From: Candidatus Sumerlaeota bacterium
Lineage (GTDB): Bacteria > Sumerlaeota > Sumerlaeia > MWCT01 > JAUWMI01
DNA length: 64,000 nt
NCBI GenBank assembly: GCA_030613245.1
Contig: JAUWMI010000019.1
Span: forward strand, 6,728 to 70,727
Reading direction: 5' to 3'
A model generated the notes under the pieces. That model did not search any database, was not told the DNA's origin, and worked only from the letters and a program-made list of their open reading frames with translations. Numbering within the stretch: position 1 is the stretch's first letter; every line of letters starts with the position of its first letter. Below, in pieces: positions 27,373-46,551 of the stretch. Made by a program: the position numbers and the translations under genes.

Positions 27373-27564
27373 ATGCCGATAAAGATTACGATTGACGAAG
27401 AGGCGTGTATCGCGTGTGGAGCCTGTGAAGCCATCTGCCCCGATATCTTCTACATGGACGGCGATAAAGCGAAGGTGAAAAACGACGCCAATTTTAAGGA
27501 CCTAAAGGCAGAAATTGAAGATGCTCGAACCGGTTGCCCGGTTGAGTGTATAGCCGTGGAATAA
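27373..27564 (+). CDS. small [4Fe-4S]/[3Fe-4S] ferredoxin (63 aa)
   Basis: MPIKITIDEEACIACGACEAICPDIF..GCPVECIAVE. Start set at the internal ATG of ORF 27169..27564. Confidence 0.8.
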   Translation: MPIKITIDEEACIACGACEAICPDIFYMDGDKAKVKNDANFKDLKAEIEDARTGCPVECIAVE

Positions 27565-27607
27565 ATCCCCCCACGGTTTCTTAGAGCACCTAACAAAAAT
27601 AACTGTC

Positions 27608-27646
27608 AAACCACGACGGCACGACGCGAATGCGCCTCAGGCGCAT
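27608..27646. repeat. repeat family B copy
   Basis: aaaccacgacggcacgacgcgaatgcgcctcaggcgcat. Confidence 0.8.
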
Positions 27647-27669
27647 AAGCCGAATTAAAGATTCAAAAT

Positions 27670-27717
27670 GTAGGGGCGGGGTTAGCCCGCCCTGGGGCGA
27701 GGAGACCTCGCCCCTAC
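27670..27717. repeat. REP-type element, family A, double inner hairpin
   Basis: gtaggggcggggttagcccgccctggggcgaggagacctcgcccctac. Confidence 0.8.
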
Positions 27718-28575
27718 AAGGCATGTACGTTGTGTCGTAGTGGTTAATGCGCCTTAGGTGCACTTAGGCGAATAAAAACTTCATTTTGATAGTGTTTCTT
27801 AGTTTTTAATCATCACAACAGTTACTCGCCCAGAGAATCCGGCAAGAGCAGGACGCTCCTAGCGTGGCCTACGTGCAGTTGTATTGTTCGTAAGATCCCC
27901 CCGATCCCCGTCGTGATGGTTTATGTCCACTATCGGTGCTGCGTGCCGGTCGTCGCACGGCTTCGCCGGCATAGAAGCCATAATTGATATTAATGGTGCA
28001 GCCAACATCGCATAGGTCTGGTTCTTAATCAGAAAAGAGAGAATACAGAGAATTGGGTAATTTGAGGTTCTCTATTCGAAAGGAGCCGCTTTGCACAATC
28101 CCTTTCTTGTGGGCTTGTGTAAAAATTTTATACACAAACACTCCCAGATACCATAGACTATTGCTGGGTAAGAGATAAGCCTCTTTTATTGAAAGTTGGA
28201 GATTGAGAAAAGCTCTTGACAACATGCCGAAGGGGAGTAATAAAAAGTGTATATAAGAAGGAAAGAAAAGCCGCTGCTGGTTTTGTGCGCGCTATTTTGT
28301 GATAATTTTCTCAAGTTGCTGTGCCCAGGAATAATACGGATTTAACAATGTAAGCCATTTTGGCCGGAAAGATACAGGGAGCCAAGTCGTTTAGGTTTCC
28401 TAAATTTAAGGAATGATTTTGTGAAAATTAGAACATGGCCGAGCAGCGTTATCAATTCTAATCTCTTGGGTTTTCCTGGCTTATCTCGTTCTTTTACATG
28501 AATTACTGCTCTAAGATGCGCTCAATGCGCGTGAATTTGCCTTATTTCAAATTCTGTTAGAAGGAGAGTATCGGT

Positions 28576-29406
28576 ATGGCACCGCGAATTGGAGTCTATA
28601 TTTGCCATTGTGGGTCGAATATCGCTGGCAAAGTGCGCACTGACGATGTTGTGGAGTACATGAAATCCCTGCCACAGGTTGTCATTGCAAAAGATTATAA
28701 GTTTATGTGCTCGGATCCCGGACAGGAACTCATTCAAAAAGATATTAAAGAACACAGGCTTGAGCGTGTGGTGGTGGCATCGTGCTCGCCGCTAATGCAC
28801 GAGCCAACGTTTCGTCGCGCCTGCGAGGACGCGGGGTTGAACCGCTATTTGCTTCAGATGACCAACATCCGGGAGCAGTGCTCCTGGGTAACCGAGGACG
28901 CTAATGCAGCCACGAATAAGGCCATGGCTTTGATCCGTGGAGCTGTGCATCGTGCAATGTACCAGGAGCCGCTGGAAACCAAGGAAGTTGACATTCATCC
29001 CGACACGCTTGTTGTCGGCGCTGGCATTGCCGGAATTCAGGCAGCGCTTGACCTGGCAGACGCGGGCAAGAAGGTCTATCTGGTCGAGAAAGAGCCAAGC
29101 ATCGGTGGCCATATGTCGCAATTCGATAAGACCTTTCCAACGCTCGATTGCGCAGCATGCATTCTGACCCCGAAAATGGTGTCAGTAGGAAAGCATCCAA
29201 ATATAGAGTTGATGACCTACAGTGAAGTGAAAGAAATTTCGGGGTATATAGGTAATTTTAAGGTAAAGATAACGCAGAAGGCGCGGTATGTTGATGTGGA
29301 TAAGTGCAACGGGTGTGGCCTGTGCTGGGAGAATTGCCCTTCGTTCACTCTTCCAAGGCGAAGAAGGATACGGATAGGGGATAAGGTGATAAAAGAGGTG
29401 AAGTAG
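28576..29406 (+). CDS. hdrA: HdrA-like flavoprotein, N-terminal ~255-residue fragment followed by 21 unrelated residues
   Basis: RIGVYICHCGSNIAG, CSPLMHEPTFR, NIREQCSWV, VVGAGIAGIQAALDLA, PSIGGHMSQFDKTFPTLDCAACILTPKM, CNGCGLCWENCP, then SFTLPRRRRIRIGDKVIKEVK-TAG. Strong SD AAGGAGAG. Confidence 0.75.
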   Translation: MAPRIGVYICHCGSNIAGKVRTDDVVEYMKSLPQVVIAKDYKFMCSDPGQELIQKDIKEHRLERVVVASCSPLMHEPTFRRACEDAGLNRYLLQMTNIREQCSWVTEDANAATNKAMALIRGAVHRAMYQEPLETKEVDIHPDTLVVGAGIAGIQAALDLADAGKKVYLVEKEPSIGGHMSQFDKTFPTLDCAACILTPKMVSVGKHPNIELMTYSEVKEISGYIGNFKVKITQKARYVDVDKCNGCGLCWENCPSFTLPRRRRIRIGDKVIKEVK

Positions 29407-29492
29407 AACGGTTAGTTCGGTTAAGCCGTTAGTCGGTTAAAAGGGGGAGATACCTTCCTTGCGGAGGGTAGTTGAGAAGCAGGGTTGAAGCA

Positions 29493-29843
29493 ATGAGACT
29501 GCGAGAGATATGCGATACATTGAAATGTGAGGTTATGGGGGGCGAAGATCAGCTTGATATGGAGATAGACGTTGGCTGTGGGGCTGATTTGATGAGCGAT
29601 GTTCTCGCGTTTATCAAGCCGAATGCGCTGATGCTTACAGGATTGGTAAATGCGCAAGTAGTGCGAACGGCGGATATAGCGGATGTAAAGGCGATAGTAT
29701 TTGTACGAGGGAAGAAACCGGATAAGGATACGATAGCGTTGGCAAAGGAGAAGGGTATACCGCTGCTCTCTACGAAGCTCTTAATGTATGAATCTTGCGG
29801 ACGGTTATACGCAGGAGGGCTTCGAGGGGGAAGTGAAGTTTAA
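29493..29843 (+). CDS. DRTGG domain-like protein
   Basis: ~116 aa. DLMSDVLAFIKPNALMLTGLVNAQVVRTA..AIVFVRGKKP..AKEKGIPLLST resembles DRTGG proteins found in hydrogenase-regulator clusters. Confidence 0.6.
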   Translation: MRLREICDTLKCEVMGGEDQLDMEIDVGCGADLMSDVLAFIKPNALMLTGLVNAQVVRTADIADVKAIVFVRGKKPDKDTIALAKEKGIPLLSTKLLMYESCGRLYAGGLRGGSEV

Positions 29844-29891
29844 CGTGTTGACAATGCGCCTTGTGCGTGAGGGTGGCGGATACAGGAAAAA

Positions 29892-30332
29892 GTGGAGACC
29901 TTGTTTTCGCAGCAATTCTTAGTTGAGGGTGGGGATTTCAGGAATGCAGGTAATGCTTCGACACAGATAAAGACCATACTCAAGCAGATAGGGATACCAG
30001 GAGAGGTAATAAGGAGAGTGGCGATAGCGGCGTATGAAGCAGAGATGAACATGGTGATGTATGCGAAGCGAGGGGTGATGACGCTGCGTATAGAGCCGAT
30101 GAAAGTTGAGATATCTGTGGAGGATGAGGGACCCGGGATAGAAGACATAGAGTTAGCGATGCAGGAGGGGTATTCGACGGCATCGCCGGAGATACGAGAG
30201 ATGGGATTTGGAGCGGGGATGGGTTTGCCGAACATAAAGAAGAATTCAGATGAGTTTTCAATTGCTTCCACGGTTGGAAAAGGAACGCAGTTGAGTATAC
30301 GGATAAGGAATAGGGTGGTGCAAAGCGAATGA
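29892..30332 (+). CDS. GHKL ATPase, anti-sigma-factor-type Ser/Thr protein kinase-like (RsbW/SpoIIAB-like)
   Basis: AAYEAEMNMV (N-box-like), EDEGPGIEDIELAMQEGYST, GFGAGMGLPNIKK. GTG start. Its stop overlaps the next start in ATGA. Confidence 0.7.
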   Translation: METLFSQQFLVEGGDFRNAGNASTQIKTILKQIGIPGEVIRRVAIAAYEAEMNMVMYAKRGVMTLRIEPMKVEISVEDEGPGIEDIELAMQEGYSTASPEIREMGFGAGMGLPNIKKNSDEFSIASTVGKGTQLSIRIRNRVVQSE

Positions 30333-31654
30333 AGACCTATTCTAGTTCAGTTTATGTGAACGTGGAGAAATGTAACGGGCGAATGATGTGTATGAGGATA
30401 TGCCCAACGGAAGCAATTCGGGTTCGTAATGGCAAAGCCGAATTGATAGTGGAGCAATGCATAGACTGCGGTGAGTGTATCAAGGTATGTCCAAATCGAG
30501 CGATAATACCAGCGACAGATTCTTTTTCCGACCTGTCGCATTTCAAGCATACGGTGGCAATACCGTCACCGGTACTCTATGGACAGTTTGGCCGAGACGT
30601 TACGCCGGAGATGATACAGGGTGCGTTACTGAAGCTGGGGTTTAATGAGGTTGCGGACATAACGGGAGCGTGCGAGGCCGTATCGCTGGCAATACGAGAG
30701 CATCTGGAGAATTATACACTTCGTAAGCCGCTGATATCGTCGTTTTGCCCGACGATAGTGCGCTTGATACAGGTGAAGTATCCGGATCTGGCGGAGCTGG
30801 TGGTGCCGTTTGAGTCGCCCAAGGAGATCGTGGCGAGGGAGGTAAAAGCGCAGAGGTCAAAGGAATTGGGTTTTAAGGAAGACGAGATAGGGGCGATATA
30901 TCTGACGCCGTGTCCTTCAAAGATGATAGACATAAAGCTTCATCCGCGTAAGGAGAAGTCTTTTATTGATGGAGCGATTTCAATAGCGGAGATATACAGC
31001 AGTGTAGTGGCACTTATGGCAGAGATGAGGAACGTGACACCGCCGGAGGTATCGATGAATAACGTCTCCGGAATAGGACTAGAGTGGACGATGCTCGGGG
31101 GACAAACGGCGTCGCTGCAGATGGAAAACAGTCTGGCAGTGGATGGACTGAAGAACGTGATCAGGGCTTTTGAGGATATAGAAAATGGTAGGCTACGGGA
31201 TATTGACTATATCGAGTGTCATTCGTGTCCGGAGGGGTGCATAGGAGGCTCGCTGACAGTTGAGAATCCATATGTATCGAGGAGTAATTTAATCGGGTTG
31301 ATGAAGCGATACGGAGATGAACCGAAGCGGAGCCGGGAGGAGATACAGGGGCTGTACAACAAGAAGTTTTTTTTCACGGAGAGGCGTTTGCCAGTAACTC
31401 CGCGTCAGCGGCTGGATGAGAATATCACGAAAGCAATAGAGAAGATGAGGAAGAAGGACGCGATATATCGAAATTTGCCGCAGATAAATTGTGGATGTTG
31501 TGGTGCCCCGAACTGTGGAGCTTTTGCCGAGGATGTGGTGCAAGGTGTGGCACAGATAACGGATTGCATATTTATTTATCAGGAGCGCCTGAAAGCAACG
31601 GGCCAGGAGATGCTGCGCTTGCTCAATAAGAAGCCAGGCTACATCAAAGATTAA
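30329..31654 (+). CDS. [FeFe]-hydrogenase-like protein, putative sensory (HydS/group C-like), with C-terminal Cys cluster
   Basis: N-terminal ferredoxin motifs (CIDCGECIKVCP). H-domain motif variants SSFCP, TPCPSK, ECHSCPEGCIGGS. C-terminal CGCCGAPNCGAF. Confidence 0.75.
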   Translation: MKTYSSSVYVNVEKCNGRMMCMRICPTEAIRVRNGKAELIVEQCIDCGECIKVCPNRAIIPATDSFSDLSHFKHTVAIPSPVLYGQFGRDVTPEMIQGALLKLGFNEVADITGACEAVSLAIREHLENYTLRKPLISSFCPTIVRLIQVKYPDLAELVVPFESPKEIVAREVKAQRSKELGFKEDEIGAIYLTPCPSKMIDIKLHPRKEKSFIDGAISIAEIYSSVVALMAEMRNVTPPEVSMNNVSGIGLEWTMLGGQTASLQMENSLAVDGLKNVIRAFEDIENGRLRDIDYIECHSCPEGCIGGSLTVENPYVSRSNLIGLMKRYGDEPKRSREEIQGLYNKKFFFTERRLPVTPRQRLDENITKAIEKMRKKDAIYRNLPQINCGCCGAPNCGAFAEDVVQGVAQITDCIFIYQERLKATGQEMLRLLNKKPGYIKD

Positions 31655-31688
31655 TGCGCCTACCCTGGCGCATAAAGGATGAAGGGCG

Positions 31689-32027
31689 ATGAAATTAGAC
31701 CAGATCGTTCGCCAATTGGGAGTGAGGGTTCGCACCACAGAGGATAAGGTGAAGGAGGTAGAGGTTAAGGGCGGATATGCGAGTGATTTGTTGAGCGACG
31801 TCATAGGAAATGCGAAGGAAGGGTATTTGTGGGTGACGTTGCAGACGCATGCGAATATATTGGCGGTAGCGAAGTTGAAGGATATCGCGGCGATCTTGTT
31901 GGTGAATAGCCGTAAGCCGGACGCCGATACGCTCGAAAAGGCAGAGAAGGAAGGGATTGTGTTGCTAGAGAGTGATCTTTCGACGTTCGAGCTGGTCGGA
32001 AGATTGTATGAAATGGGGATACGGTGA
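31689..32027 (+). CDS. DRTGG domain-like protein (second copy)
   Basis: 112 aa. ASDLLSDVIGNAKEGYLWVTLQTHANILAVA..AILLVNSRKP..AEKEGIVLLES is a paralogue of 29493..29843. Confidence 0.6.
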   Translation: MKLDQIVRQLGVRVRTTEDKVKEVEVKGGYASDLLSDVIGNAKEGYLWVTLQTHANILAVAKLKDIAAILLVNSRKPDADTLEKAEKEGIVLLESDLSTFELVGRLYEMGIR

Positions 32028-32100
32028 TCGCCGAGGCGATGAGGGGCATTCTTCAGAGTGCCCACGCTTTGGCGTTAAGCTGATTGAAAGATGAAGGGAG

Positions 32101-32823
32101 ATGGCGAAAGGAATTGCCGCAGATTTGCATATACATACGTGTCTGTCGCCATGCGGCGAGTTGGAGATGTCGCCCAAAGGAATCGTTGAGGAGGCTTTGC
32201 GAAAGGGAATTGATATAATCGCCGTCTGCGATCACAACAGTGCGGAAAATGCACCCGCGGTGATCGAGGCTGCAAGGGGCAGCGGACTGCTGGTGCTGCC
32301 AGGTATAGAGATTACAACACGGGAAGAAGTTCATATAGCCGGGCTCTTTGATAGATGCGCCGATGCTCTGAAGGTTCAGGAGTTTGTGTATCAGCATTTG
32401 TATGGAGAAAATGACGAAGAGGCGTTCGGCGTGCAGCCGGTGGTGAACGCAGAGGGTGAAGTTTTGGAACTTAACCAGCGGCTACTGATCGGCTCAGCCG
32501 ATATTTCGGTCGAGGAGACGGTGGAGCAGATTCACAGGGCAGGGGGTTTGGCGATAGCGGCACACATAGACCGGGAGGCTTTTGGGATAATAGGGCAGCT
32601 GGGATTTATTCCGGATGACCTGGAGCTGGATGCGCTGGAGATTTCGAGCCGGACGACGGTAGAGGAAGCGAGGAGGAAATTCCAGGGGTGTGAAAGGTAT
32701 TTCATTTTCAGGTCTTCGGATGCGCATCGTTTGAAAGAGATAGGGCAGGCGGTAACGGAGATGGAGCTCGGTGAGGTCTCTTTCAAAGCGATTCGAGAGA
32801 TGTTAAGGACGATTCACCCATAA
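32101..32823 (+). CDS. PHP-domain phosphoesterase
   Basis: ADLHIHTCLSPCG..IIAVCDHNS..AAHIDRE..SSDAHRL are the His/Asp metal-ligand blocks of the PHP superfamily. Confidence 0.8.
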   Translation: MAKGIAADLHIHTCLSPCGELEMSPKGIVEEALRKGIDIIAVCDHNSAENAPAVIEAARGSGLLVLPGIEITTREEVHIAGLFDRCADALKVQEFVYQHLYGENDEEAFGVQPVVNAEGEVLELNQRLLIGSADISVEETVEQIHRAGGLAIAAHIDREAFGIIGQLGFIPDDLELDALEISSRTTVEEARRKFQGCERYFIFRSSDAHRLKEIGQAVTEMELGEVSFKAIREMLRTIHP

Positions 32824-32871
32824 AATTGGTGACTGATTTTGAGCAATTTTGGAAACGCTCGCCTACGGTAA

Positions 32872-33396
32872 TTGACTGTGCAGGATTTATCGCTTCACAT
32901 ATTGGATATAGTAGAGAATTCAATAACGGCTGGAGCGAAGAATGTTGAGATAAGGCTGATAGAGGATACAGAGGTGGATGTTCTGATTCTGGAGATAGAC
33001 GATGATGGCGTGGGGATGGATGAGGAGATGGTGCGCAAGGCGGCAGACCCGTTTGTGACGAGTCGAACTGAGAGAGACGTGGGTCTCGGTTTGGCGCTTC
33101 TTGCGCAGGCCGCAGAGATGGCGAACGGGAAGATAACCATAGAATCGAAGCGGGGCAAGGGGACACACGTAAAGGCGACGTTTCAATACAGTCATATAGA
33201 CAGAAAACCGTTGGGGAATGTAGGGGATACGCTGATAACTTTGATATGCGGGAATGCAGAGATAGATTTCACATTCTATCACAAGTGGCCGCTACGGGAA
33301 GTAAGGATCTCGACAAAGGAGATGAAGGAACGCCTTGGACGGGCGAACCTTGACTATATAGACACTGCTCGAGAGGTGCGAAGAAGACTCCAATAG
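32872..33396 (+). CDS. histidine-kinase-like (GHKL) ATPase, second copy
   Basis: LDIVENSITAGA (N box), IDDDGVGMD (G1), DVGLGLALL (G2). TTG start as given by the ORF track. Confidence 0.7.
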   Translation: MTVQDLSLHILDIVENSITAGAKNVEIRLIEDTEVDVLILEIDDDGVGMDEEMVRKAADPFVTSRTERDVGLGLALLAQAAEMANGKITIESKRGKGTHVKATFQYSHIDRKPLGNVGDTLITLICGNAEIDFTFYHKWPLREVRISTKEMKERLGRANLDYIDTAREVRRRLQ

Positions 33397-33435
33397 GTAA
33401 GCCAGACGGCTCGCGTCTGGGACAGGAGGCAGGAG

Positions 33436-33903
33436 ATGAAGGATAGCGTGCTGGAGCTCGAAAAGGTCCAGGAAATTATTCAGCGGTGGAACGGGAAGCA
33501 AGAGTTTCTTATTGAAATGCTTCAGGACGTTCAGGCGGAATATCGTTATTTGCCCAGGGAGGTGCTTGAGGAGATTGCCCGAACCATAGAGGTTCCACTT
33601 GGTAGGGTATATCATTTGGCGACGTTTTTTAAGGGGTTCAGTCTAACCCCGAGAGGAGAGTATGAAGTAAGCGTTTGTATGGGTACGGCATGCCATGTAA
33701 AAGGGGGGAAGCGGATACTGGATGCATTTTCGCGGCAGTTGAAGATCGAGGAGGGTGGGACTACAGGGGATCAGAAATTCAGTCTGGACTCGGTTCGATG
33801 TCTTGGATGTTGCGGTCTGGCACCAGTCGTGACGATAAATGAAGATCTTTACGGGAATATAAATTCGACAAGGGTAGCTGCGATATTGAAAAAATATAAA
33901 TAA
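33436..33903 (+). CDS. NuoE/HndA/HydC-like [2Fe-2S] subunit
   Basis: VCMGTACHVKGG..VRCLGCCGLAPVVTIN holds the four Cys of the NuoE-type cluster. Confidence 0.9.
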   Translation: MKDSVLELEKVQEIIQRWNGKQEFLIEMLQDVQAEYRYLPREVLEEIARTIEVPLGRVYHLATFFKGFSLTPRGEYEVSVCMGTACHVKGGKRILDAFSRQLKIEEGGTTGDQKFSLDSVRCLGCCGLAPVVTINEDLYGNINSTRVAAILKKYK

Positions 33904-33943
33904 GCCGGACGGCTCCGGTCTGGCAGAAGGTGGTGCATAGAAG

Positions 33944-34327
33944 ATGAAAAAGCTCACGATTACAGACCTTGAGAAGCTGCGCCAAAAGATTCAGGAAGAC
34001 CATACTGTGCGAGAGGGAAAGGCACTTGCTACGATAAACCTGCATATGGGAACTTGCGGGATTGCTGCTGGGATGAGGAAGGTCATGACGGCCTTGTTGC
34101 AGGAGATTGAAGCAAAGGACATTAAGAATGTGCGCGTGAGCACGTCTGGGTGCGCGGGTTTATGTAGCCGAGAGCCCATGGCAACGGTTCTGATTGCAGG
34201 GCAACCACCGGTAAAATATGCTGACCTTACGGATGAAAAGATTCGGAGAATACTGAATGAGCATGTGCTTGGTGGCAACCTTGTTAAGGAATATGTGCTC
34301 GCAGTAGGAAGCGAGCGCGTGGGATAG
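33944..34327 (+). CDS. HndB-like thioredoxin-fold [2Fe-2S] ferredoxin
   Basis: NLHMGTCGIAAG..STSGCAGLCSREPMATV. Confidence 0.8.
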   Translation: MKKLTITDLEKLRQKIQEDHTVREGKALATINLHMGTCGIAAGMRKVMTALLQEIEAKDIKNVRVSTSGCAGLCSREPMATVLIAGQPPVKYADLTDEKIRRILNEHVLGGNLVKEYVLAVGSERVG

Positions 34328-34411
34328 CAAGGGACGGGGAGGAAAAGTAAAAGGAAATGGCGGTATTGAAAGACCAGAAATTAGCATGTTTATACCCAGG
34401 AGGTTGAAGAA

Positions 34412-36226
34412 ATGCCATACCGACTGCATATGTTGCTATGCGCGGGTACGGGCTGTGTGAGTAATCGCTCGTTGGAGGTAAAAGAGGCTTTGGAGAAGGA
34501 GATTCAGCAACGCGGTCTTGAGAGCGAGATTCAGGTGATTGCGACAGGTTGCAATGGGTTTTGCGGTGTAGGACCAATAGTACTTGTGCAACCAGACGGA
34601 ATTTTTTACCAGCAGGTAAAGGTAAGGGATATTCCTGCACTGGTAGAGGAGCACCTGGTAAAGGGGAGACCGTATAAGAAGCTGATGTTTACGCCGAGCA
34701 AAGAGGCCGAGCCAATACCGAAGATGAATGATATACCTTTCTTCGGTAAGCAGATGTTGATAGCATTAAGGAACCGTGGGCTTATTGATCCAGAGAACAT
34801 TGAGGAGTATATTGCTCGAGATGGATACAAGGCCCTGGCGAAAGTCCTCTCTTCTATGACACCGGAACAGGTGATCGAAGAGGTAAAGGTATCAGGCCTG
34901 CGCGGGCGAGGTGGTGGTGGATTCCCAACAGGATTAAAGTGGGAAGTGTGCCGCAATGCGATCGGGGATGAGAAATACTTAATTTGCAATTGCGATGAGG
35001 GCGACCCGGGAGCATTTATGGATCGAAGCATTGTTGAGAGCGATCCGCATTCTGTCATTGAGGGAATGGCGATAGGCGCATACGCAGTTGGGATACTGCA
35101 AGCATATATTTACGTTCGAATGGAATATCCGTTAGCATTGAAGCGTTTTATTCTGGCGCTTGACCAGGCGCGGGAATACGGGCTTATCGGAGAGAATATT
35201 CTGGGGACTAGCTTCAGTTTTGACATAGAGGTTCATCGTGGTGCGGGTGCGTTTGTCTGCGGGGAGGAGACGGCTCTGATAGCTTCAATAGAGGGTAAGC
35301 CAGGCGAGCCGCGAGCGAAGTATGTCTACCCTGCGCAACAGGGTCTGCGAGATATGCCTACGTTGATAAACAATGTCGAGACATGGGCCAACATACCCGT
35401 AATAATTCAACGTGGTGCGAAATGGTTCTCCAGTATAGGCACGCGTGATGTCAGCGAATCGGAACAGGGGGGAAGCACTGGCACGAAGGTCTTCTCGCTT
35501 GTCGGGAAGGTAAACAATACTGGGCTGGTTGAGGTCCCGATGGGGATAAAGTTGCGTGAGATAATTTACGATATAGGCGGGGGAATAGCTGGAGGAAAAC
35601 GATTCAAAGCAGTTCAGACAGGCGGCCCTTCAGGCGGTTGCCTTCCAGAGGAGTTACTGGATTTGCCAGTAGATTTTGATCGTTTGCTGAGTGTGGGCTC
35701 GATGATGGGTTCTGGCGGGATGATAGTGATGGATGAAGAAGATTGTATGGTAGACGTTGCGCGATACTTTATAGATTTTCTGAACGGTGAATCGTGCGGG
35801 AAGTGCACGCCTTGTCGAGAAGGTCTGCGGCAGATGAGAGAGATTCTGAACCGAATTTGCGACGGAAAAGGTGAGGATGCGGATATACAGAAGTTAGAAG
35901 ATTTGTCAGAGCTGATGGTGGAAGGGTCGCTGTGTGCGCTGGGCGGTACTGCACCGAATCCGGTGTTAAACACGCTGCGATATTTCAAGGATGAATACGT
36001 TGCGCATATAAAGGATAGGCGGTGCCCGGCGGGCACTTGTCAAGCGCTCATAACCTACCGGATTGACGCTGAAAAATGCACGGGCTGCGCGCTTTGTGCG
36101 AAGCATTGTCCGGTAAATTGTATAAGCGGTGAGCCGAAAAAGCTGCATACGATTGAAATATCAGCGTGCATCAAGTGCGGCACTTGCTATGATGCGTGCA
36201 GGTTTGATGCAGTAATACGGAAATGA
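34412..36226 (+). CDS. NuoF/HndC/HydB-like NAD(H)-binding FMN subunit with extra Fe-S domains
   Basis: N-terminal CAGTGC..GCNGFC thioredoxin-like 2Fe-2S. GRGGGGFPTGLKW FMN site. ESCGKCTPCREG N3 cluster. C-terminal 2x CxxCxxCxxxC. Confidence 0.9.
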   Translation: MPYRLHMLLCAGTGCVSNRSLEVKEALEKEIQQRGLESEIQVIATGCNGFCGVGPIVLVQPDGIFYQQVKVRDIPALVEEHLVKGRPYKKLMFTPSKEAEPIPKMNDIPFFGKQMLIALRNRGLIDPENIEEYIARDGYKALAKVLSSMTPEQVIEEVKVSGLRGRGGGGFPTGLKWEVCRNAIGDEKYLICNCDEGDPGAFMDRSIVESDPHSVIEGMAIGAYAVGILQAYIYVRMEYPLALKRFILALDQAREYGLIGENILGTSFSFDIEVHRGAGAFVCGEETALIASIEGKPGEPRAKYVYPAQQGLRDMPTLINNVETWANIPVIIQRGAKWFSSIGTRDVSESEQGGSTGTKVFSLVGKVNNTGLVEVPMGIKLREIIYDIGGGIAGGKRFKAVQTGGPSGGCLPEELLDLPVDFDRLLSVGSMMGSGGMIVMDEEDCMVDVARYFIDFLNGESCGKCTPCREGLRQMREILNRICDGKGEDADIQKLEDLSELMVEGSLCALGGTAPNPVLNTLRYFKDEYVAHIKDRRCPAGTCQALITYRIDAEKCTGCALCAKHCPVNCISGEPKKLHTIEISACIKCGTCYDACRFDAVIRK

Positions 36227-36321
36227 TGTTACCTGGCGTTTCGCCGGCTGTCTGGCATGGCGAAGCGCGTCTCAGATAACAACGGTACAGCAGGGGATAG
36301 TAAACTAAAAAGGAGTAGACC

Positions 36322-38079
36322 ATGGCAACAGTAACTATTGATGACCAGAAGCTGGAGATAGAAGACGAGAAGACGATACTTGATGTGGCGAAAAAGCTGG
36401 GGATAAGAATTCCAACGCTCTGCCATAACGAGATGATTGAGCCGTATGCAGCGTGCAGAATATGTTCGGTTGAGATAGTGAGAGGGAAGCGGCGCAGAAT
36501 AGTAACGGCGTGTAATTATCCAGTTTCGGACGGGCTGGTGGTTTATTCGAATAATGAGCGGGTGCGGAAGATACGCAAGATAATACTGGAGTTGTTGCTG
36601 GCGCGATGTAGTGCGGAGGTGCCGATCCTAAAGGAATTGGCTGAGGAATATGGGCTTGAGGAATGGCGGTTCGGTCGCGGGAAAGAAGAATGCATACTGT
36701 GCGGTCTGTGCGTAAGGGTATGCGATGAGATAGTCGGTGTGCAAGCGATAGCGTTTGCGAATAGAGGAGCGGATAGGGAGGTGACCACGCCATTTGGAAC
36801 AGAGTCGGAGGCGTGTATCGCGTGTGGGGCGTGTGCGTTTGTGTGTCCGACAGGTGCAATAAAACTAGAGGAACTAGAGGGCCTCCAGATAGTTCACCAG
36901 GATTTGTGCTTAGGTCCGGCAAGGGCGATAGCGGTTCCGTTCTTGCAAGCCGTGCCGAATGTTCCAGTGATTGATAAAGATGCCTGTATTCATTTCCGAA
37001 CCGGTGAGTGCCACATCTGTGAAAAAGTTTGTGAGCCAGAGGCGATTAACTTTGAAATGGAGGAGAAGGAGATCGAGGTTGAGGTCGGAGCAGCCATTCT
37101 CGCCACCGGTTTTGAACCGTTCGATCCTAGTGTAATAACGCAATATGGATATGGCAGAATGAAGAACGTCATAACCTCGCTGGAATTTGAACGAATGAAT
37201 TGTGCAGCCGGCCCCACAGCTGGCAAGATTTTAATGGTTGATGGTAAGGAGCCAAAGAGTGTGGGGATTATCCATTGCGTAGGGAGTCGCGATAAGGAGT
37301 ATCACGAGTACTGCTCTGCTGTGTGTTGTATGTATGCGCTGAAATACGGCCACCTGCTGAAGGAAAAGATTAATGCTGAAGTGTATAACTTCTATATAGA
37401 TTTGCGCTGCTATAAAAAGGGCTATGAGGAGTTTTATCACCGATTGCTGGAAGAAGACATCCGCTTTGTGCGTGGTAAGGTAGCAGAGGTCTCCGACTTT
37501 GCCATTTATGAGAAAGAAAGAGGCAAACTGATCATCCGTTGTGAAGACACTCTGATCGGTATTATCCGCAGAATCCCCGTGGATATGATAGTTCTCTGTA
37601 CCGCAATCCAGGCACGATCTGATGCTCTGGAGACCGCCCGCACATTTACGATCGGACAAGGTAAGGACGGCTTCTTTATTGAAAAGCATCCAAAGCTTGC
37701 ACCGGTGGCAACGATGAACGACGCCATTTATATTGCCGGTGTATGCCAGGGGCCAAAGGATATTCCAGAGTCTGTAGCACAGGGGTCTGCGGCGGCGTCT
37801 GCTGCGCTCTCTGCTCTGGTTAAAGGGAAAGCGGAAATCGAATCAATTGTTGCAGTGATTGACGAGGATAAATGCGCAGGATGCCGCATTTGCAACGGGT
37901 TGTGCCCCTCAACGGCAATTAGCTTTGATGAGGAGAAAAAGATCTCAGTAGTCAACGAGGCGTTGTGTAAGGGGTGCGGAACATGCGGGGCAGGCTGTCC
38001 AAGTGGTGCTATTACCAGTCGCCACTTCACTGACCGCCAGATAGTTGCGGAAATTGAGGGGATTATGCAGGGGCCCTGA
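36322..38079 (+). CDS. chimeric Fe-S flavoprotein: N-terminal 2Fe-2S plus 4Fe-4S module (~200 aa) fused to the C-terminal ~385 aa of HdrA
   Basis: TLCHNEMIEPYAACRICSVEI..ACNYPV (2Fe-2S), CILCGLCVRVC, CIACGACAFVCP. Then HdrA blocks ARAIAVPFLQAVP, CIHFRTGECHICEKVCEP, ATGFEPFD, YGYGRMKNVITSLEFER, CVGSRD..YCSAVCCMYALK. C-terminal CAGCRICNGLCP and CKGCGTCGAGCP. Confidence 0.8.
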   Translation: MATVTIDDQKLEIEDEKTILDVAKKLGIRIPTLCHNEMIEPYAACRICSVEIVRGKRRRIVTACNYPVSDGLVVYSNNERVRKIRKIILELLLARCSAEVPILKELAEEYGLEEWRFGRGKEECILCGLCVRVCDEIVGVQAIAFANRGADREVTTPFGTESEACIACGACAFVCPTGAIKLEELEGLQIVHQDLCLGPARAIAVPFLQAVPNVPVIDKDACIHFRTGECHICEKVCEPEAINFEMEEKEIEVEVGAAILATGFEPFDPSVITQYGYGRMKNVITSLEFERMNCAAGPTAGKILMVDGKEPKSVGIIHCVGSRDKEYHEYCSAVCCMYALKYGHLLKEKINAEVYNFYIDLRCYKKGYEEFYHRLLEEDIRFVRGKVAEVSDFAIYEKERGKLIIRCEDTLIGIIRRIPVDMIVLCTAIQARSDALETARTFTIGQGKDGFFIEKHPKLAPVATMNDAIYIAGVCQGPKDIPESVAQGSAAASAALSALVKGKAEIESIVAVIDEDKCAGCRICNGLCPSTAISFDEEKKISVVNEALCKGCGTCGAGCPSGAITSRHFTDRQIVAEIEGIMQGP

Positions 38080-38281
38080 CGTGCAATTGACTTGAGTCTA
38101 CCGATGTAAAGTAGGAATAAGCAGGTTTTCATGATTGAGCGACATGCAGGAGAGCCATGTCGCTTAATTTTCCTATATGCCTCTTTTTTACACACCCTCT
38201 TTACATGCCTTGCCCAATGCCCCTTGCTCTTATCGTTCAAATAGGTGCTTGGGCCAGCCTTGGTGCGCGGCGTGGAAATAG

Positions 38282-38309
38282 GGAGGGCAGGTTTGAAACC
38301 TGCCCCTCC
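38282..38309. repeat. REP-type palindrome, family A variant
   Basis: ggagggcaggtttgaaacctgcccctcc. Inner stem as in the copy at 13130. Confidence 0.7.
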
Positions 38310-38464
38310 ACTTGGAAACGATATAAATATACAACAGATGTTGCAGCGTATACTATTGTTGTCTCAAGGGTTACATTTCTAATTAAACATTAATGGACAG
38401 TTTTTTGCCTCGAAGGAATGGATTCCTGAGAGCCATTTTTCTTGAATATACCAGCCATTTTTTC

Positions 38465-38493
38465 TTGACAGAGAGAAGCAAGATGACATATAT
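38465..38493 (+). promoter_or_regulatory. candidate promoter of the rrf2-cysH-sat operon
   Basis: TTGACA at 38465-38470, then a weak AT-rich -10 (atatat/tatatg) after 17-18 nt; ~37 nt upstream of the ATG. The -35 overlaps the second copy of a direct repeat AGCCATTTTTCTTGA. Confidence 0.3.
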
Positions 38494-38529
38494 GACTTAC
38501 ATTACCAACATAATTAACATGGGGCTATC

Positions 38530-38976
38530 ATGAAAATTTCGGCAAGATGTGACTATGCATGTCGCGCAGTGCTTGAACTGACACTCGCTTACCCGAGCGG
38601 GGAATTGCTCAGGATTTCTGACATTGCGGCGAGTCAGAATATTCCTCCCAAATATCTTGTTCAGATATTGATCCAGCTCAAGCGAGCAGGACTGTTAGCA
38701 AGTACGCGGGGGAAAAGCGGCGGATATCGCCTGGCAAAGCGTCCGGACCAGATCTGTGTGGGTGATGTTGCAAGGGCAATAGACGGACCGCTAATGCTGA
38801 TTGGGTGCATTGACCCTGGGGCCAAAAAGGCGTGTCCACAGTTTGAGAGCTGTGCTTTCAGGCAGATGTGGAAAGAACTTGAGAAGAAGATAACCGGGTT
38901 ACTGGATAGTGTGACCTTTGAAGATATCGGCAATAGATTGAAGGATTCGGTGGAAATAGCGATGTACGAAATATAA
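38530..38976 (+). CDS. Rrf2-family transcriptional regulator (IscR/CymR-like) with three clustered Cys
   Basis: MKISARCDYACRAVLELT..ISDIAASQNIPPKYLVQILIQLKRAGLLASTRGKSGGYRLA. Cys ligand candidates in GCIDPGAKKACPQFESC. Confidence 0.9.
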   Translation: MKISARCDYACRAVLELTLAYPSGELLRISDIAASQNIPPKYLVQILIQLKRAGLLASTRGKSGGYRLAKRPDQICVGDVARAIDGPLMLIGCIDPGAKKACPQFESCAFRQMWKELEKKITGLLDSVTFEDIGNRLKDSVEIAMYEI

Positions 38977-39032
38977 TTTTTTGAGACAAATGTTTACCAA
39001 GTTAATCATATTAGTTTTAATGGGAGGCGTAT

Positions 39033-39785
39033 ATGGCTCAAGAACAGAACACTCAGAAACTAGAAAGGGAGATCCAGCCGCTCCAGGACAGTGACGCGGA
39101 ACAGGTGGTGCGCTGGGCGCTCGAGCGTTTTGATGATCAGGTTGCTCTGGCCTCTAGCTTTGGCGTTGAGGATATGGTTCTGACTGATATGATGCTGCGT
39201 ATATCTCCACGTGCCCGCATCTTTACCCTCGATACTGGGCGGCTTCCGAAGGAGACGTATGACCTGATGGAGCGGGTGCGCGAGCGCTATGGAGTGAGAA
39301 TTGAGGTCTTTGCTCCCCAGAGTTCTCAGCTCGAGAAGATGATTTCAGAGAGCGGGCCGAATGCGTTTTATCGTTCGATTGAGTTGCGCAGGCTATGCTG
39401 CAACGTGCGTAAGGTGGAGCCACTTGGCCGCGCATTACAGAGTCTGTCGGCGTGGATTTGTGGCCTGAGACGCGCACAGGCTGTAACACGCCAGGAGCTA
39501 AAAAAGCTGGAAATTGATGAGGCGCACGGCGGAATGCTGAAGATTAACCCCCTTCTTGAGTGGAGTGACAAGGAGGCCTGGAACTACGTCATGGAGCGCG
39601 ATGTTCCGTACAATGTGCTTCACGATCGGAGCTACCCAAGTATTGGGTGCGCACCATGCACGCGAGCAGTGCAGCCAGGGGAAGACATCCGGGCGGGCCG
39701 CTGGTGGTGGGAGACTCCAGAACAAAAGGAATGTGGCCTTCATCGGACGGGTTCTTCAAAGACTGATACTACAGGAGGGCAATAA
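39033..39785 (+). CDS. cysH: adenylylsulfate/phosphoadenylylsulfate reductase, Fe-S type (assimilatory)
   Basis: PP-loop-like ALASSFGVEDMVL, RLCCNVRKVEPL plus IGCAPCT (CC..CxxC cluster ligands), C-terminal KECGLH. Confidence 0.9.
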   Translation: MAQEQNTQKLEREIQPLQDSDAEQVVRWALERFDDQVALASSFGVEDMVLTDMMLRISPRARIFTLDTGRLPKETYDLMERVRERYGVRIEVFAPQSSQLEKMISESGPNAFYRSIELRRLCCNVRKVEPLGRALQSLSAWICGLRRAQAVTRQELKKLEIDEAHGGMLKINPLLEWSDKEAWNYVMERDVPYNVLHDRSYPSIGCAPCTRAVQPGEDIRAGRWWWETPEQKECGLHRTGSSKTDTTGGQ

Positions 39786-41008
39786 TGGCTGGTGGTGGAA
39801 TAGCACCCCATGGAGGGCGGCTGGTCAATCGAATGGCCTCGCCGGATGAGCACGAGAGCTTGCTGAGCGAAGCGCAGGGCCTGAAACGTGTGCAGTGCAA
39901 GGCACGTGAACTGGGTGACCTCACAAAGATCGCGATCGGGGCCTACAGTCCCCTGGAAGGATTCATGACGCAGGCTGATTACGAGCGCGTGGTTGAAGAA
40001 AAGCGCTTGAATAGCGGGTTGGTGTGGACAATACCGATCACGCTGGCCGCAGGTCGTGAGGATGTGCGGGGTATCGGGCCGGGCGAGCGAGTGGCGCTTG
40101 TTGATGCAGAGCAGAACTTGCGTGGAGTGATGGATATCCATGACATCTATGCTTACGATAAGGAGCGTGAGGCGAGTTGTGTTTACCTGACCACGGATCA
40201 GGAACATCCGGGGGTGCGAGCGCTGTTTGAACGTGGTGAGTTGCTGCTTGGCGGATCGGTGACCGTATTTAACCAGAGTGGGCCGCATCCTTATGCTCCG
40301 TATTATCTGAAACCAGAGCAGACGAGAGCTACGTTTCAAAAGCGAGGGTGGCGACGGATCGTTGGATTTCAGACGCGCAATCCGCTCCACCGGGCGCATG
40401 AGTACATACTTAAGTGTGCAATGGAAATTACGGACGGGCTGTTTTTAAGCCCGCTGGTGGGTGAGACGAAACCAGGGGACATCCCAGCATCAGTGCGTAT
40501 GCAATGCTATGAGGCGATGCTTCGCTCCTACTTTCCAGCGCAGCGCGTCGTATTGGGTGTAATTGACGTGACAATGCGCTATGCAGGGCCGCGGGAGGCG
40601 GTTTTTCATGCACTGATCCGGCAGAATTTCGGATGTACGCATTTCATTGTCGGGCGCGACCATGCGGGCGTGGGCCAGTTCTACGGGCCATTTGATGCCC
40701 ACAGGCTATTTGAGGAGATAGGGGAAAGAGAGATTGGGATCCAACCGCTCTTCTTCGACGGTTCATTTTACTGCCGACGATGCCTGGCAATAGTGACCGC
40801 GCGAACCTGTCCGCACAAGGAAACAGAGCACCGGCGGCTGAGCGGGACCGAGGTGCGCGAGCTGCTGGCGCGCGGCGAGCAGCCGCCAGAGGAGCTCATG
40901 CGGCCCGAGGTCGCAGAAATTCTGCTTGAGGCGTATCGTGACGGCACATGGCAGACGCCGCAGGGCGGCCGTCCCGCCAAGGATCAAACAACCACAAAAC
41001 AGAGATGA
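39785..41008 (+). CDS. sat: sulfate adenylyltransferase (ATP sulfurylase)
   Basis: GFQTRNPLHRAHEYI and IVGRDHAGVG motifs. Start overlaps the cysH stop (TAATG). Confidence 0.95.
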   Translation: MAGGGIAPHGGRLVNRMASPDEHESLLSEAQGLKRVQCKARELGDLTKIAIGAYSPLEGFMTQADYERVVEEKRLNSGLVWTIPITLAAGREDVRGIGPGERVALVDAEQNLRGVMDIHDIYAYDKEREASCVYLTTDQEHPGVRALFERGELLLGGSVTVFNQSGPHPYAPYYLKPEQTRATFQKRGWRRIVGFQTRNPLHRAHEYILKCAMEITDGLFLSPLVGETKPGDIPASVRMQCYEAMLRSYFPAQRVVLGVIDVTMRYAGPREAVFHALIRQNFGCTHFIVGRDHAGVGQFYGPFDAHRLFEEIGEREIGIQPLFFDGSFYCRRCLAIVTARTCPHKETEHRRLSGTEVRELLARGEQPPEELMRPEVAEILLEAYRDGTWQTPQGGRPAKDQTTTKQR

Positions 41009-41121
41009 TTGATCTTCAGATATCACTGGTTGGGTTTGTGATTGGCATCCTTGTCGGGCTGACAGGTGTTGGTGGGGGTGTGCTCATGACTCCCCTGCTA
41101 ATAGCTTCAGACTTTTCATAA
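41005..41121 (+). pseudogene. 38-codon remnant of a TauE/SafE-type sulfite/anion exporter gene
   Basis: ATG overlaps the sat stop (ATGA). MIDLQISLVGFVIGILVGLTGVGGGVLMTPLLIASDFS-stop. LTGVGGGxLMxP is the first-TM signature of the ~250-aa TauE/SafE family. Not in the ORF track (<60 aa). Confidence 0.55.
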
Positions 41122-41142
41122 ACAAAGGTGGAGGGGTTAGAG

Positions 41143-42135
41143 ATGGCGGATAAGTTTATAGAGGATAAAGACAATAAAATAAACGTAGATACACAAATTG
41201 AAGGGAAGACAGGGACGATAGATTTTAACCTCCTCAAATCCGGTGGTTTGATTAAGCAGAGACAAATAAATATGTTTACCGTGAGGTTGCGGTGCCCTGG
41301 AGGTAGGGTTCCACTTTCCAAATTAGAGAAGATTGTGGAAGTGGCAAAGAAATATGCCGGCGATTATGTGCACCTGTCTTTTCGGCAGTCTATTGAATTG
41401 CCTTATGTGGATTACCGCAACTTTAAAGTCATATACGAGGAACTAGGCGAAGCAGATCAAAAAGTAGCCTCCTGTGGCCCACGAGTCAGGGTGCCCACGG
41501 CTTGTTCGGGGTGCGAATATAATCCCAATGGACTCACGGACACACAGAAGATGGTAAGGTTGGTAGACGAGAAATTTTTCGGGCATAGGCTTCCTCACAA
41601 GTTTAAGATATCGTTCTCGGGTTGTCCCATAGATTGTGCCAGAACAAGCGAGAATGATCTGGGCTTTCAAGGTGCGGTAAAGCCAGAATGGGATGAAGAG
41701 ACTTGCATTGGTTGCCGTATTTGCTCGAAGGCATGTAGCGAGGGAGCTATTGAGAGCGATGCAGAGACGGGCAAACCGATATATTATCCTGAGAAGTGCC
41801 TGTATTGCGGAGACTGTATCCGTTCCTGCCCTACGGATAGCTGGAAGGAGAAAGTTAAGGGATGGATGGTACGAGTTGGTGGCAGGCACGGAAGGCATCC
41901 TATTGTTGGGCATAGAATTGCTGAATTTATTTCAGATGAGGATGTGCCGAAGTTTATCGAAGCTATCATAAAATGGTATGAAGAAAATGGGAAAGAATAT
42001 GGGAGGACAAGAATAGGGGTTATCTTGCAGATTCTCGAAAAATGGAAAGACTTTCTCAGCACCATGAGAGAAGTATTCAAGGATAGAATATTAGCAAACC
42101 CGATGTCCCCAACGAAGAATGAGATACATTTTTAA
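41143..42135 (+). CDS. small siroheme-type sulfite/nitrite reductase-like protein with inserted 2x[4Fe-4S] ferredoxin domain
   Basis: RLRCPGGRV..HLSFRQSIELP, CGPRVRVPTACSGCEYNP, SGCPIDCARTSENDLGF, CIGCRICSKAC..CLYCGDCIRSCP. SD AAGGTGGAGGGG precedes ATG 41143. Confidence 0.75.
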   Translation: MADKFIEDKDNKINVDTQIEGKTGTIDFNLLKSGGLIKQRQINMFTVRLRCPGGRVPLSKLEKIVEVAKKYAGDYVHLSFRQSIELPYVDYRNFKVIYEELGEADQKVASCGPRVRVPTACSGCEYNPNGLTDTQKMVRLVDEKFFGHRLPHKFKISFSGCPIDCARTSENDLGFQGAVKPEWDEETCIGCRICSKACSEGAIESDAETGKPIYYPEKCLYCGDCIRSCPTDSWKEKVKGWMVRVGGRHGRHPIVGHRIAEFISDEDVPKFIEAIIKWYEENGKEYGRTRIGVILQILEKWKDFLSTMREVFKDRILANPMSPTKNEIHF

Positions 42136-44148: not shown

Positions 44149-44207
44149 AGCCGCGCGCCCCCTGTTAATATAGAGCACTGTCGGATTAAGGACGATTACT
44201 CCACAGG

Positions 44208-45857: not shown

Positions 45858-45928
45858 CGTCTTCCCCCTTGCCAACCCTGGCCGTCTAAGAAGGCAAATG
45901 CTAAGGCACGATGTACGCAATTTGGCGT

Positions 45929-46516: not shown

Positions 46517-46551
46517 TTTGTATGATCTATGAATGCGTTGTACAGAATTAT

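Follow-up and report, generated by a model that had tools for sequence, protein, structure and literature searches.

The gene cluster and its hydrogenase-like protein

The window, a 64-kb stretch of DNA from a Candidatus Sumerlaeota bacterium, carries a six-gene cassette built around HydS, a protein of 441 amino acids (aa) that resembles [FeFe]-hydrogenases (Table 1). Open reading frames (ORFs) and Pfam matches bear out the first-pass annotation of these genes, including their number, order, strand, and coordinates, the ATGA shared by the GHKL1 stop and the HydS start, and the motifs SSFCP, TPCPSK, ECHSCPEGCIGGS, and CGCCGAPNC within the HydS sequence. That annotation had, however, treated the six genes as an orphan module. 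They are instead embedded in a cluster of 11 same-strand genes (28576-38079) that runs from hdrA(N) through the cassette and nuoE-hndB-nuoF to a bfuA::hdrA(C) fusion, and in relatives the full form of this operon also holds HdrCB and an Mvh-type [NiFe] hydrogenase. The locus was found in two metagenome-assembled genomes (MAGs) at 96-97% protein identity, and at least eight independent assemblies show the 12-gene layout.

Table 1. Genes of the cluster, with the matches that identify them and the number of the 48 full-flank loci (defined in the text) that hold each gene
Feature	Position	Strand	Evidence	Loci of 48
Small ferredoxin, single-cluster [4Fe-4S]	27376..27564	+	Pfam Fer4_13, E 1.5e-14	
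hdrA N-terminal third, hdrA(N): N-terminal cluster domain, start of FAD domain, first Cys motif of inserted ferredoxin domain	28576..29406	+	NCBIfam HdrA2 positions 1-256, E 1e-118	
DRTGG1	29493..29843	+	PF07085, E 5e-9	46
GHKL1, SpoIIAB/RsbW-type serine-kinase-like ATPase	29892..30332	+	HATPase_c_2, E 8e-11	46
HydS, 441 aa, predicted group D (M2e) [FeFe]-hydrogenase-like	30329..31654	+	Fe_hyd_lg_C, E 9e-30; PF04060 FeS, E 9e-13; 4Fe-4S motifs	
DRTGG2	31689..32027	+	PF07085 at 22 bits, slightly below cut-off; membership via family alignment	46
PHP-family metal-dependent phosphoesterase	32101..32823	+	PHP and PHP_C	43
GHKL2, stand-alone histidine-kinase-type CA domain	32872..33396	+	HATPase_c, E 9e-17	33
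NuoE/HydC/BfuC-like [2Fe-2S] subunit	33436..33903	+	PF01257, E 1.6e-49; HoxE/NuoE models	33
HndB/HydD/BfuD-like small thioredoxin-like subunit	33944..34327	+	Weak PF01257 match; conserved position between NuoE and NuoF	
NuoF/HydB/BfuB-like FMN/NAD(H) subunit	34412..36226	+	Complex1_51K, NADH_4Fe-4S, N-terminal 2Fe-2S_thioredx, two C-terminal Fer4; nuoF_fam, E 6e-144	33
BfuA-type FeS domain fused to hdrA C-terminal two-thirds, bfuA::hdrA(C), 585 aa	36322..38079	+	NCBIfam HdrA2 positions 262-641, E 1.6e-128; FeFe_hydrog_A6/HoxU N-terminal match	

The H-cluster region of HydS departs from the catalytic group A and B enzymes at all three motifs (TSCCP, MPCxxK, and ExMxCxxGC in the catalytic set), and the protein scored far below the cut-offs of the catalytic NCBIfam models, with 76 bits against 406 for FeFe_hydrog_A and 139 bits against 450 for FeFe_hydrog_B1. 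The annotation had called HydS a putative sensory enzyme of group C rather than a catalytic one. The sensor-type assignment stands, but the group does not. Group D (M2e) enzymes have been described as having an N-terminal iron-sulfur (FeS) domain, a C-terminal Cx2Cx4Cx16C motif, no PAS domain, a lost C299, and Ser or Thr in place of M353 (PMC8163306). In HydS the C-terminal motif (CGCCGAPNC...x16...C, residues 388-413) is formed by C388, C391, C396, and C413, which are invariant in the family; Pfam gave no PAS match, the protein ending 28 residues past its last Cys; SSFCP places Phe at the proton-relay Cys (C299 of CpI); and TPCPSK places Thr at M353. Because these published features are present and the defining PAS domain of group C is missing, HydS is predicted to be a putative sensor [FeFe]-hydrogenase of group D (M2e, TamHydS-type) and not a PAS-bearing member of group C.

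All solved relatives returned by a PDB sequence search with HydS were [FeFe]-hydrogenases. An AlphaFold2 (AF2) model had a predicted local distance difference test score (pLDDT) of 69 overall and 80-90 in the H-domain core, and the top 50 PDB fold matches to this model were again all [FeFe]-hydrogenases (probability 1.0, TM-score about 0.55); the possibility raised with the annotation, that the protein might lack an H-domain fold, therefore fails. The four Cys ligands of the H-cluster (C140, C195, C300, and C304) are invariant in 20 aligned sequences and in all 81 loci. Of the two N-terminal FeS motifs, the second is a canonical CxxCxxCxxxCP and the first is a Cx5Cx3C (residues 15-25, 30371-30403) found family-wide, which leaves only 7 Cys for two presumed clusters. 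Given the conservation of this shorter motif, one N-terminal cluster may have a non-Cys ligand or may be a 3Fe cluster.

The HydS family is large, with more than 6,000 matches at E ≤ 1e-10. In a neighbor-joining tree, the group D proteins together form a long branch apart from catalytic HydA, and the window HydS groups with proteins from HdrA contexts; it falls in one family with the HydS encoded at L035 (L numbers denote the loci of HydS relatives that were fetched), a HydABC locus from Thermoanaerobacteraceae that carries the published TamHydS residues (Ser, Leu). The HdrA-associated subclade shows the signature S-[SP]-F-C-P, T-P-C-P-[AS]-K, and E-C-[HN]-x-C, and the HydABC-associated proteins show SSACP and E-[LA]-x-A-C. 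TamHydS of Thermoanaerobacter mathranii (PMC8163306, PMC13104023) shares with the window protein its domain plan, the missing PAS domain, the lost proton-relay Cys, and a hydroxyl side chain at M353. The two differ in that HydS has Phe where TamHydS has Ala at the C299 position, in the third motif, where E-C-H-x-C (an extra Cys, and His at M497) marks the HdrA-associated subclade, and in their neighbors, a split-HdrA/NuoEF complex for HydS and an [FeFe] HydABC for TamHydS. Identity between the window HydS and TamHydS-like proteins (L035) is about 40%.

Group C sensors (TmHydS, RaHydS, and HfsB) embody the same idea as HydS, a slow H-cluster enzyme that has a C-terminal cluster and whose gene is linked with those for a kinase or phosphatase and for bifurcating hydrogenases, but they carry a fused PAS domain, and some also a kinase or PP2C domain, whereas HydS has none of these fusions and its signaling proteins are encoded by separate genes. 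The regulatory [NiFe]-hydrogenase HoxBC-HoxJ likewise senses H2 and signals by way of a kinase, as proposed for HydS below, but it has a different metal site, a PAS/histidine-kinase partner, and a transcriptional output via HoxA. A Dehalococcoidia MAG (L114, 7932-9908, minus strand) encodes a 658-aa HydS-like H-domain protein with a C-terminal HATPase domain beside an Mvh/HdrA locus; this protein is predicted to be an independent sensor-hydrogenase/GHKL fusion adjoining a [NiFe] Mvh system.

The signaling genes and their pairings

To place the cassette in context, 80 loci of HydS relatives from many phyla were annotated with the window proteins, and those whose sequence extended 5 kb or more to the upstream side and 8 kb or more to the downstream side formed a full-flank set of 48. 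About 70 of 81 nonredundant loci, drawn from many phyla, show the cassette gene order, more than chance would produce. In the full-flank set, whose counts are not phylogenetically independent, DRTGG1, GHKL1, DRTGG2, and PHP each accompany HydS in 43 to 46 loci, which upholds the conserved linkage that the annotation had expected. GHKL2 behaves differently. It occurs together with NuoF in 32 of the 48 loci, both are missing from 14, and only two loci are discordant, one in each direction; in a second count, a separate HndB-like gene and GHKL2 are both present in 47 loci and both absent from 9, with 2 loci holding GHKL2 only and none holding HndB only. On these counts the near-invariant unit is DRTGG1-GHKL1-HydS-DRTGG2-PHP, which stands alone in 15 of the 48 loci and is joined by GHKL2 only where NuoE and NuoF adjoin.

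The annotation had pointed to similar gene sets beside bifurcating hydrogenase operons, and this proved correct for Bacillota, in which the cassette lies beside HydABC operons in 29 loci; in most Bacillota loci GHKL2 sits between nuoE and hndB. Other NuoEF partners occur as well. In L015 (4063-6334) the BfuA N-domain is fused to a glycine-cleavage H-protein (GCV_H) domain; L018 (7866-14721) combines the cassette with a 1185-aa NuoF-GltD-like fusion, a 1087-aa fusion of BfuA to a complete HdrA, and MvhD; and L017 (13626-16142) has an 838-aa BfuA carrying a molybdopterin (Fdh-like) module. The range of these arrangements indicates that the cassette is tied to NuoEF-type cores whatever their third module and is not specific to [FeFe] HydABC. 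A role in anti-phage defense was considered as well and was dropped because PADLOC returned only marginal domain matches (Ppl, 18.6 bits; MzaB, 16.7 bits).

The N, G1, and G2 boxes typical of the serine-kinase subfamily can be read in the GHKL1 sequence, and its only sequence relatives in the PDB are SpoIIAB anti-sigma F kinases. The AF2 model of a DRTGG-GHKL fusion homologue, the kinase half of which is 57% identical to GHKL1, matched SpoIIAB/RsbW with target-normalized TM-scores of 0.8-0.88. GHKL1 is thus predicted to be a SpoIIAB/RsbW-type kinase. Natural DRTGG1-GHKL1 fusions occur in L017, L019, and L037, and a family of such fusions of about 265 aa filled all of the best 120 matches of a search. 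DRTGG1 has a D-x-M-S-D-V motif with Ser35 invariant in 75 sequences, and its paralogue DRTGG2 has a D-L-L-S-x-V motif with Ser36 invariant in an alignment of 70 sequences, so that both share an invariant Ser within D-x-x-S-D/x-V. We consider this Ser a candidate phospho-acceptor, and DRTGG1 may be the substrate of GHKL1 or its partner. The genes for GHKL1 and HydS share 4 nucleotides (nt) in 11 loci and are elsewhere separated by gaps mostly below 40 nt.

The resemblance to SpoIIAB-SpoIIAA and RsbW-RsbV modules is one of plan: GHKL1 belongs to the same serine-kinase branch, a small alpha/beta partner has an invariant Ser, and a phosphoesterase is present. The partner is DRTGG rather than STAS, however, the phosphoesterase is PHP rather than PP2C, and no sigma factor is linked. 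It could still be supposed that the cassette controls transcription, with GHKL1 as an anti-sigma-type partner-switching kinase whose target is either an unlinked regulator or sigma factor or the adjacent Rrf2, and with the DRTGG proteins as antagonists. That the only solved relatives of GHKL1 are the anti-sigma kinases SpoIIAB and RsbW fits this idea, as do the AraC-type regulator reported beside TamHydS (PMC8163306) and the Rrf2 gene at 38530-38976, 450 bp downstream of the operon. But clustering of the flanking ORFs of 78 loci revealed no transcription factor, sigma, or STAS family that recurs near the cassette; Rrf2 heads a CysH-Sat-Sir cluster and is missing from this place in close relatives, L003 among them, which runs straight into pseudopilin-like genes; and GHKL2 is tied to the structural genes for NuoF and HndB and in Bacillota lies between nuoE and hndB. 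We consequently regard transcriptional control as unlikely. Among the absences reported for the window by the annotation, those of a catalytic hydrogenase, HydEFG, and STAS or sigma genes (the last from Pfam scans of large ORFs across the 64 kb) were confirmed, whereas that of a DNA-binding output was not, Rrf2 being such a regulator, though one that is not conserved with the cassette.

GHKL2 consists of a HATPase_c domain only (174 aa), has no DHp/HisKA phospho-acceptor domain, in which it differs from two-component histidine kinases, and finds its PDB relatives among the catalytic and ATP-binding (CA) domains of histidine kinases. The best 120 homologues in a search for informative fusions were all stand-alone proteins of 150-214 aa; among the fetched loci, GHKL2 is fused to PHP in two Vicinamibacterales MAGs (L029/L030). 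Because of this fusion, its absence where NuoEF is absent, and its co-occurrence with HndB, GHKL2 likely couples the cassette to the NuoEF enzyme rather than acting as a partner of DRTGG2. Two parallel DRTGG-GHKL couples had been suggested in the annotation; the natural fusions speak for the DRTGG1-GHKL1 couple, but the DRTGG2-GHKL2 couple is not borne out by a protein that tracks NuoF and HndB and is fused to PHP.

A further alternative starts from the other two proteins. The cassette might sense or process a nucleotide or other metabolite, with DRTGG binding the ligand, as in the regulatory regions of Pta and CBS-pyrophosphatases, PHP hydrolyzing a nucleotide signal, and the two GHKL proteins serving as ATP-driven clamps on the enzyme. 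A PDB sequence search with DRTGG1 gave no match, and the structural neighbors of the DRTGG domain are AF1212 (2ioj listed as neighbor), the regulatory region of CBS-pyrophosphatase (CBS-PPase), and the HPr kinase N-domain. The nearest solved relatives of PHP are 3',5'-bisphosphate nucleotidases or RNase AM-type enzymes, and the missing phospho-acceptor domain of GHKL2 would suit a clamp. Nevertheless, a kinase-substrate pair would account equally well or better for the DRTGG1-GHKL1 fusions and for the invariant Ser of both DRTGG paralogues, and GHKL1 has kept the boxes of the serine-kinase subfamily, which makes a metabolite-sensing cassette improbable in our judgment.

The HdrA/NuoEF genes and the missing Mvh hydrogenase

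On either side of the cassette lie the two parts of a complete HdrA (model positions 1-256 and 262-641). The first is kept as a separate gene of about 280 aa in all HdrA-type loci. The second forms the C-terminal part of a fusion protein in which residues 1-190 are a BfuA/HydA/NuoG-type N-terminal FeS domain and residues 194-582 cover HdrA positions 262-641; residues 3-97 match the N termini of HydA-A6, HoxU, and NuoG (E 6e-41) and are followed by two 4Fe-4S motifs. Fusions of about 585 aa were also found in L007-L012, L024, L029, L030, L087-L090, L095, L149, and L163. The break falls inside the inserted ferredoxin domain of HdrA, with one CxxCxxCxxxC motif (C244-C254) ending the first polypeptide and the second (C222-C237) lying in the fusion, so that two clusters would have to be built across two subunits. 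NuoF carries an additional N-terminal [2Fe-2S] and two additional C-terminal [4Fe-4S] motifs, as in bifurcating-type BfuB, and the domain layout and Cys positions agree with the BfuB, BfuC (NuoE-like), and BfuA N-terminal FeS components of the Bfu family. Bifurcation by this NuoEF-HdrA enzyme with NAD(H), ferredoxin, and a third substrate is putative.

The order of the cassette, NuoE, HndB, NuoF, and the BfuA N-domain is that of a HydABC operon with its cassette. In the type-A loci of Bacillota, a canonical HydA (MPCxAK and ExMxC motifs) occupies the slot after NuoF; the HdrA part would accordingly take the place of the H-cluster domain of HydABC. The simplest history would be that a HydABC-type operon with its cassette was inserted into the hdrA gene of an hdrCBA-mvhDGA operon. 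The cassette, GHKL2, and HndB are all missing from two loci, one in a Planctomycetales MAG (L149) and one in MAG AUK046 (L163), that run hdrC-hdrB-hdrA(N)-nuoE-nuoF-bfuA::hdrA(C)-mvhD-mvhG-mvhA. A split-HdrA/NuoEF/Mvh enzyme thus occurs independently of the cassette, which is accessory to the enzyme and not a structural part of it.

The split-HdrA layout spans five phyla, with hdrCB and mvhDGA at its ends, and every HdrA-type locus outside the lineage of the window begins with hdrC-hdrB and ends with mvhD-mvhG-mvhA. Pfam identifies the last three as FlpD, Oxidored_q6, and NiFeSe_Hases, which together make up an Mvh-type [NiFe] hydrogenase. Such loci come from Ignavibacteria (L007, L024, and L095), Acidobacteriota (L008, L010, L011, L029, and L030), Clostridiales (L012), and Sumerlaeota (L090), along with L089, whose HydS is 85% identical to that of the window and which has hypA upstream. 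Compared with MvhADG-HdrABC, the window has a complete HdrA sequence and its relatives carry hdrC, hdrB, mvhD, mvhG, and mvhA, but the HdrA of the window is split and joined to a BfuA FeS domain and to NuoE, HndB, and NuoF, and HdrB, HdrC, and MvhADG are missing. One genome paper labels an Ignavibacteria locus as "MvhADG/HdrABC" plus an "[FeFe] group A hydrogenase." The window enzyme also resembles the Bfu family (HydABC, Nfn-Bfu, Fdh-Bfu, and Bam-Bfu), which combines BfuB, BfuC, and the BfuA N-domain with a swapped catalytic module in what the Bfu survey terms "Type 1" logic, and Bam-Bfu in particular pairs the Bfu core with an HdrA-type module (PMC9304861). Neither a BfuA::HdrA(C) fusion with a separate HdrA N-part nor an embedded sensor cassette is among the Bfu types set out in the consulted portions of that survey.

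All five genes for HdrC, HdrB, MvhD, MvhG, and MvhA are absent from the operon in the window, in L001-L006, and in L087/L088. No remnant of them was detected anywhere in the 64 kb by tblastn with the L089 proteins at E values up to 10, nor did Pfam scans of large ORFs or tblastn with MvhA/G/D and HdrB/C yield a catalytic [FeFe] or [NiFe] hydrogenase there. When a genome collection was searched with the MvhA of L089, no Sumerlaeota contig appeared in the best 80 of at least 600 candidates. The place that hdrCB occupies in L089/L090 corresponds in the window to 27565-28575, about 1 kb without a credible ORF. The place of mvhDGA is taken in L087 (18471-21323) by a segment with an ISL3 transposase at the junction, and in the window (38530-42135) by Rrf2 and the genes for 3'-phosphoadenosine 5'-phosphosulfate reductase (CysH), ATP sulfurylase (Sat), and an AsrC-like small sulfite reductase (Sir). 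These comparisons point to a recent, lineage-specific loss of the hydrogenase.

The genes that remain have been maintained. Between the window and L087, both Mvh-less and separated by a synonymous divergence (dS) of about 1, the ratio of nonsynonymous to synonymous substitution rates (dN/dS) is 0.05-0.16 for all retained genes, against 0.09 for a MutL control, with values of 0.05 for the ferredoxin, 0.056 for HydS, and 0.06 for the HdrA fusion. Because of these ratios, the retained genes are functional and under purifying selection. It is extremely improbable, then, that they are what is left of a decaying Mvh-Hdr-NuoEF operon and have become inactive. The loss of four to five flanking structural genes and the transposase at the deletion junction in L087 would fit decay, but at least nine independent assemblies hold intact copies of all 12 retained genes, and the low dN/dS holds between two Mvh-less lineages.

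Alternatively, HydS might have become the working hydrogenase of the complex after the loss of Mvh, in a new [FeFe]-HdrA-NuoEF H2:NAD+/ferredoxin oxidoreductase; HydS would feed H2-derived electrons to the split HdrA/NuoEF enzyme, or withdraw them, by way of its N-terminal clusters. Mvh and HdrBC are gone without remnants, HydS ranks with the best-conserved genes of the operon and has an N-terminal FeS relay, and TamHydS interconverts H+ and H2 at low rates (PMC8163306). However, the active-site motifs of HydS are identical in the window and in the Mvh-bearing L089, so there is no sign of a functional shift; Phe stands in place of the proton-relay Cys; the cassette occurs alone in 15 of 48 loci and beside a complete HydABC in 29; and the split HdrA-NuoEF-Mvh operon exists without it (L149 and L163). 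We find this role for HydS quite unlikely. The same low credence attaches to the fuller form of the idea, a new H2-linked bifurcating enzyme in which HydS would be the sole H2-reactive site, a two-polypeptide HdrA would share its ferredoxin clusters, NuoEF would form the core, and the kinases and phosphoesterase would provide its own control; it would have two potential bifurcation centers, the FAD of HdrA and the FMN/FeS site of Bfu.

A proposed switch on the enzyme and the flanking DNA

We propose instead that the cassette forms the accessory set of a group D sensor and acts on the NuoEF-HdrA enzyme as an H2/redox switch at the post-translational level, a reading that we hold with moderate confidence, at slightly better than an even chance. 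HydS would bind an H-cluster and report H2, or the redox poise behind H2, with a turnover expected to be slow because Phe replaces the proton-relay Cys. We infer that its state would be passed to the co-translated GHKL1, which would phosphorylate or sequester DRTGG1 at or near the invariant Ser, and that PHP, acting as a putative reset phosphatase together with DRTGG2, would reverse the signal. GHKL2 would relay the signal to the enzyme, probably via the HndB-like subunit, so that the cassette would act post-translationally on NADH/ferredoxin electron flow in the NuoEF-HdrA complex and would not control transcription. The annotation had named the adjacent flavin/HdrA-type complex as one possible target; its genes share a strand and a gene cluster with the cassette, and it is now a likely target. 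The small ferredoxin is a possible low-potential partner of the operon. Its gene has the same place in L003-L006 and L087/L088.

Several points weigh against such a switch. With Mvh and HdrBC gone, neither the reaction of the remaining enzyme nor a reason for H2 to control it is evident. HydE, HydF, and HydG, which would be needed to make an H-cluster, were not found within the 64 kb by Pfam scans of large ORFs or by a radical-SAM/HydF motif scan, and in TamHydS the C-terminal cluster shows no response to H2 (PMC13104023). The partners of group D enzymes were stated to be unidentified as of 2026 (PMC13104023), and the signaling chain of these enzymes is a proposal at every step. The DRTGG domain does not have a STAS fold and may be a ligand-binding domain instead, and the solved proteins nearest to PHP are nucleotide phosphoesterases, not protein phosphatases. 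In the AF2 model of the DRTGG-GHKL fusion, the domains have a pLDDT of 84, but the predicted TM-score is 0.54 and the interface between the domains is unreadable. Finally, the co-occurrence counts lack phylogenetic independence.

Group D sensors, their location upstream of HydABC, and a histidine-kinase-like neighbor are already known (PMC8163306). Full-text searches of the literature that paired DRTGG with hydrogenase or were aimed at HdrA/NuoEF fusions returned no description of the cassette or of the operon; what appears to be new relative to the searchable literature is the DRTGG/PHP composition, the separate status of GHKL2, and an association of the cassette with NuoEF cores and not with hydrogenases in themselves. 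The split-HdrA/NuoEF/Mvh [NiFe] operon, present in Sumerlaeota, Ignavibacteria, Acidobacteriota, and Clostridia, is previously undescribed. A 2026 study of TamHydS closes with the need to identify interaction partners (PMC13104023). The cassette offers candidates for such partners of group D enzymes, namely GHKL1, the invariant Ser of DRTGG, PHP, and GHKL2 as the link to the HndB-like subunit, and the lineage of the window provides a natural experiment in which the sensor and the enzyme core have stayed under selection after the hydrogenase was lost.

The remaining observations concern the DNA around the cluster. A scan with Rfam at gathering thresholds gave no match in the window, and the ORF-free leader of about 1 kb that follows the ferredoxin gene thus holds no known RNA; ARAGORN found no tRNA in the window. 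Counts from a promoter and terminator consensus scan of the window were at chance level, and the boundaries of the operon are not definable from sequence. A GC skew of +0.15 to +0.33 together with a positive AT skew was seen at 28000-42000, a region that comprises only the operon and the Rrf2-CysH-Sat-Sir cluster; the skew of the other plus-strand genes in the window is 0.1 or less. A purine-rich coding strand of this kind possibly reflects foreign origin or high expression. The window also holds a gene for SelB, the selenocysteine elongation factor (56590-58566), and the organism therefore makes selenoproteins. An in-frame selenocysteine in the HdrA fusion was considered and rejected, the gene having no internal stop and the HdrA genes no in-frame TGA. 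On the minus strand at 42514-45920 lie two tandem paralogues of about 560 aa, each with an N-terminal transmembrane or prepilin-like segment and a C-terminal end resembling type II secretion protein G, and these are followed by an IS200-like Y1 transposase gene at 45929-46618.

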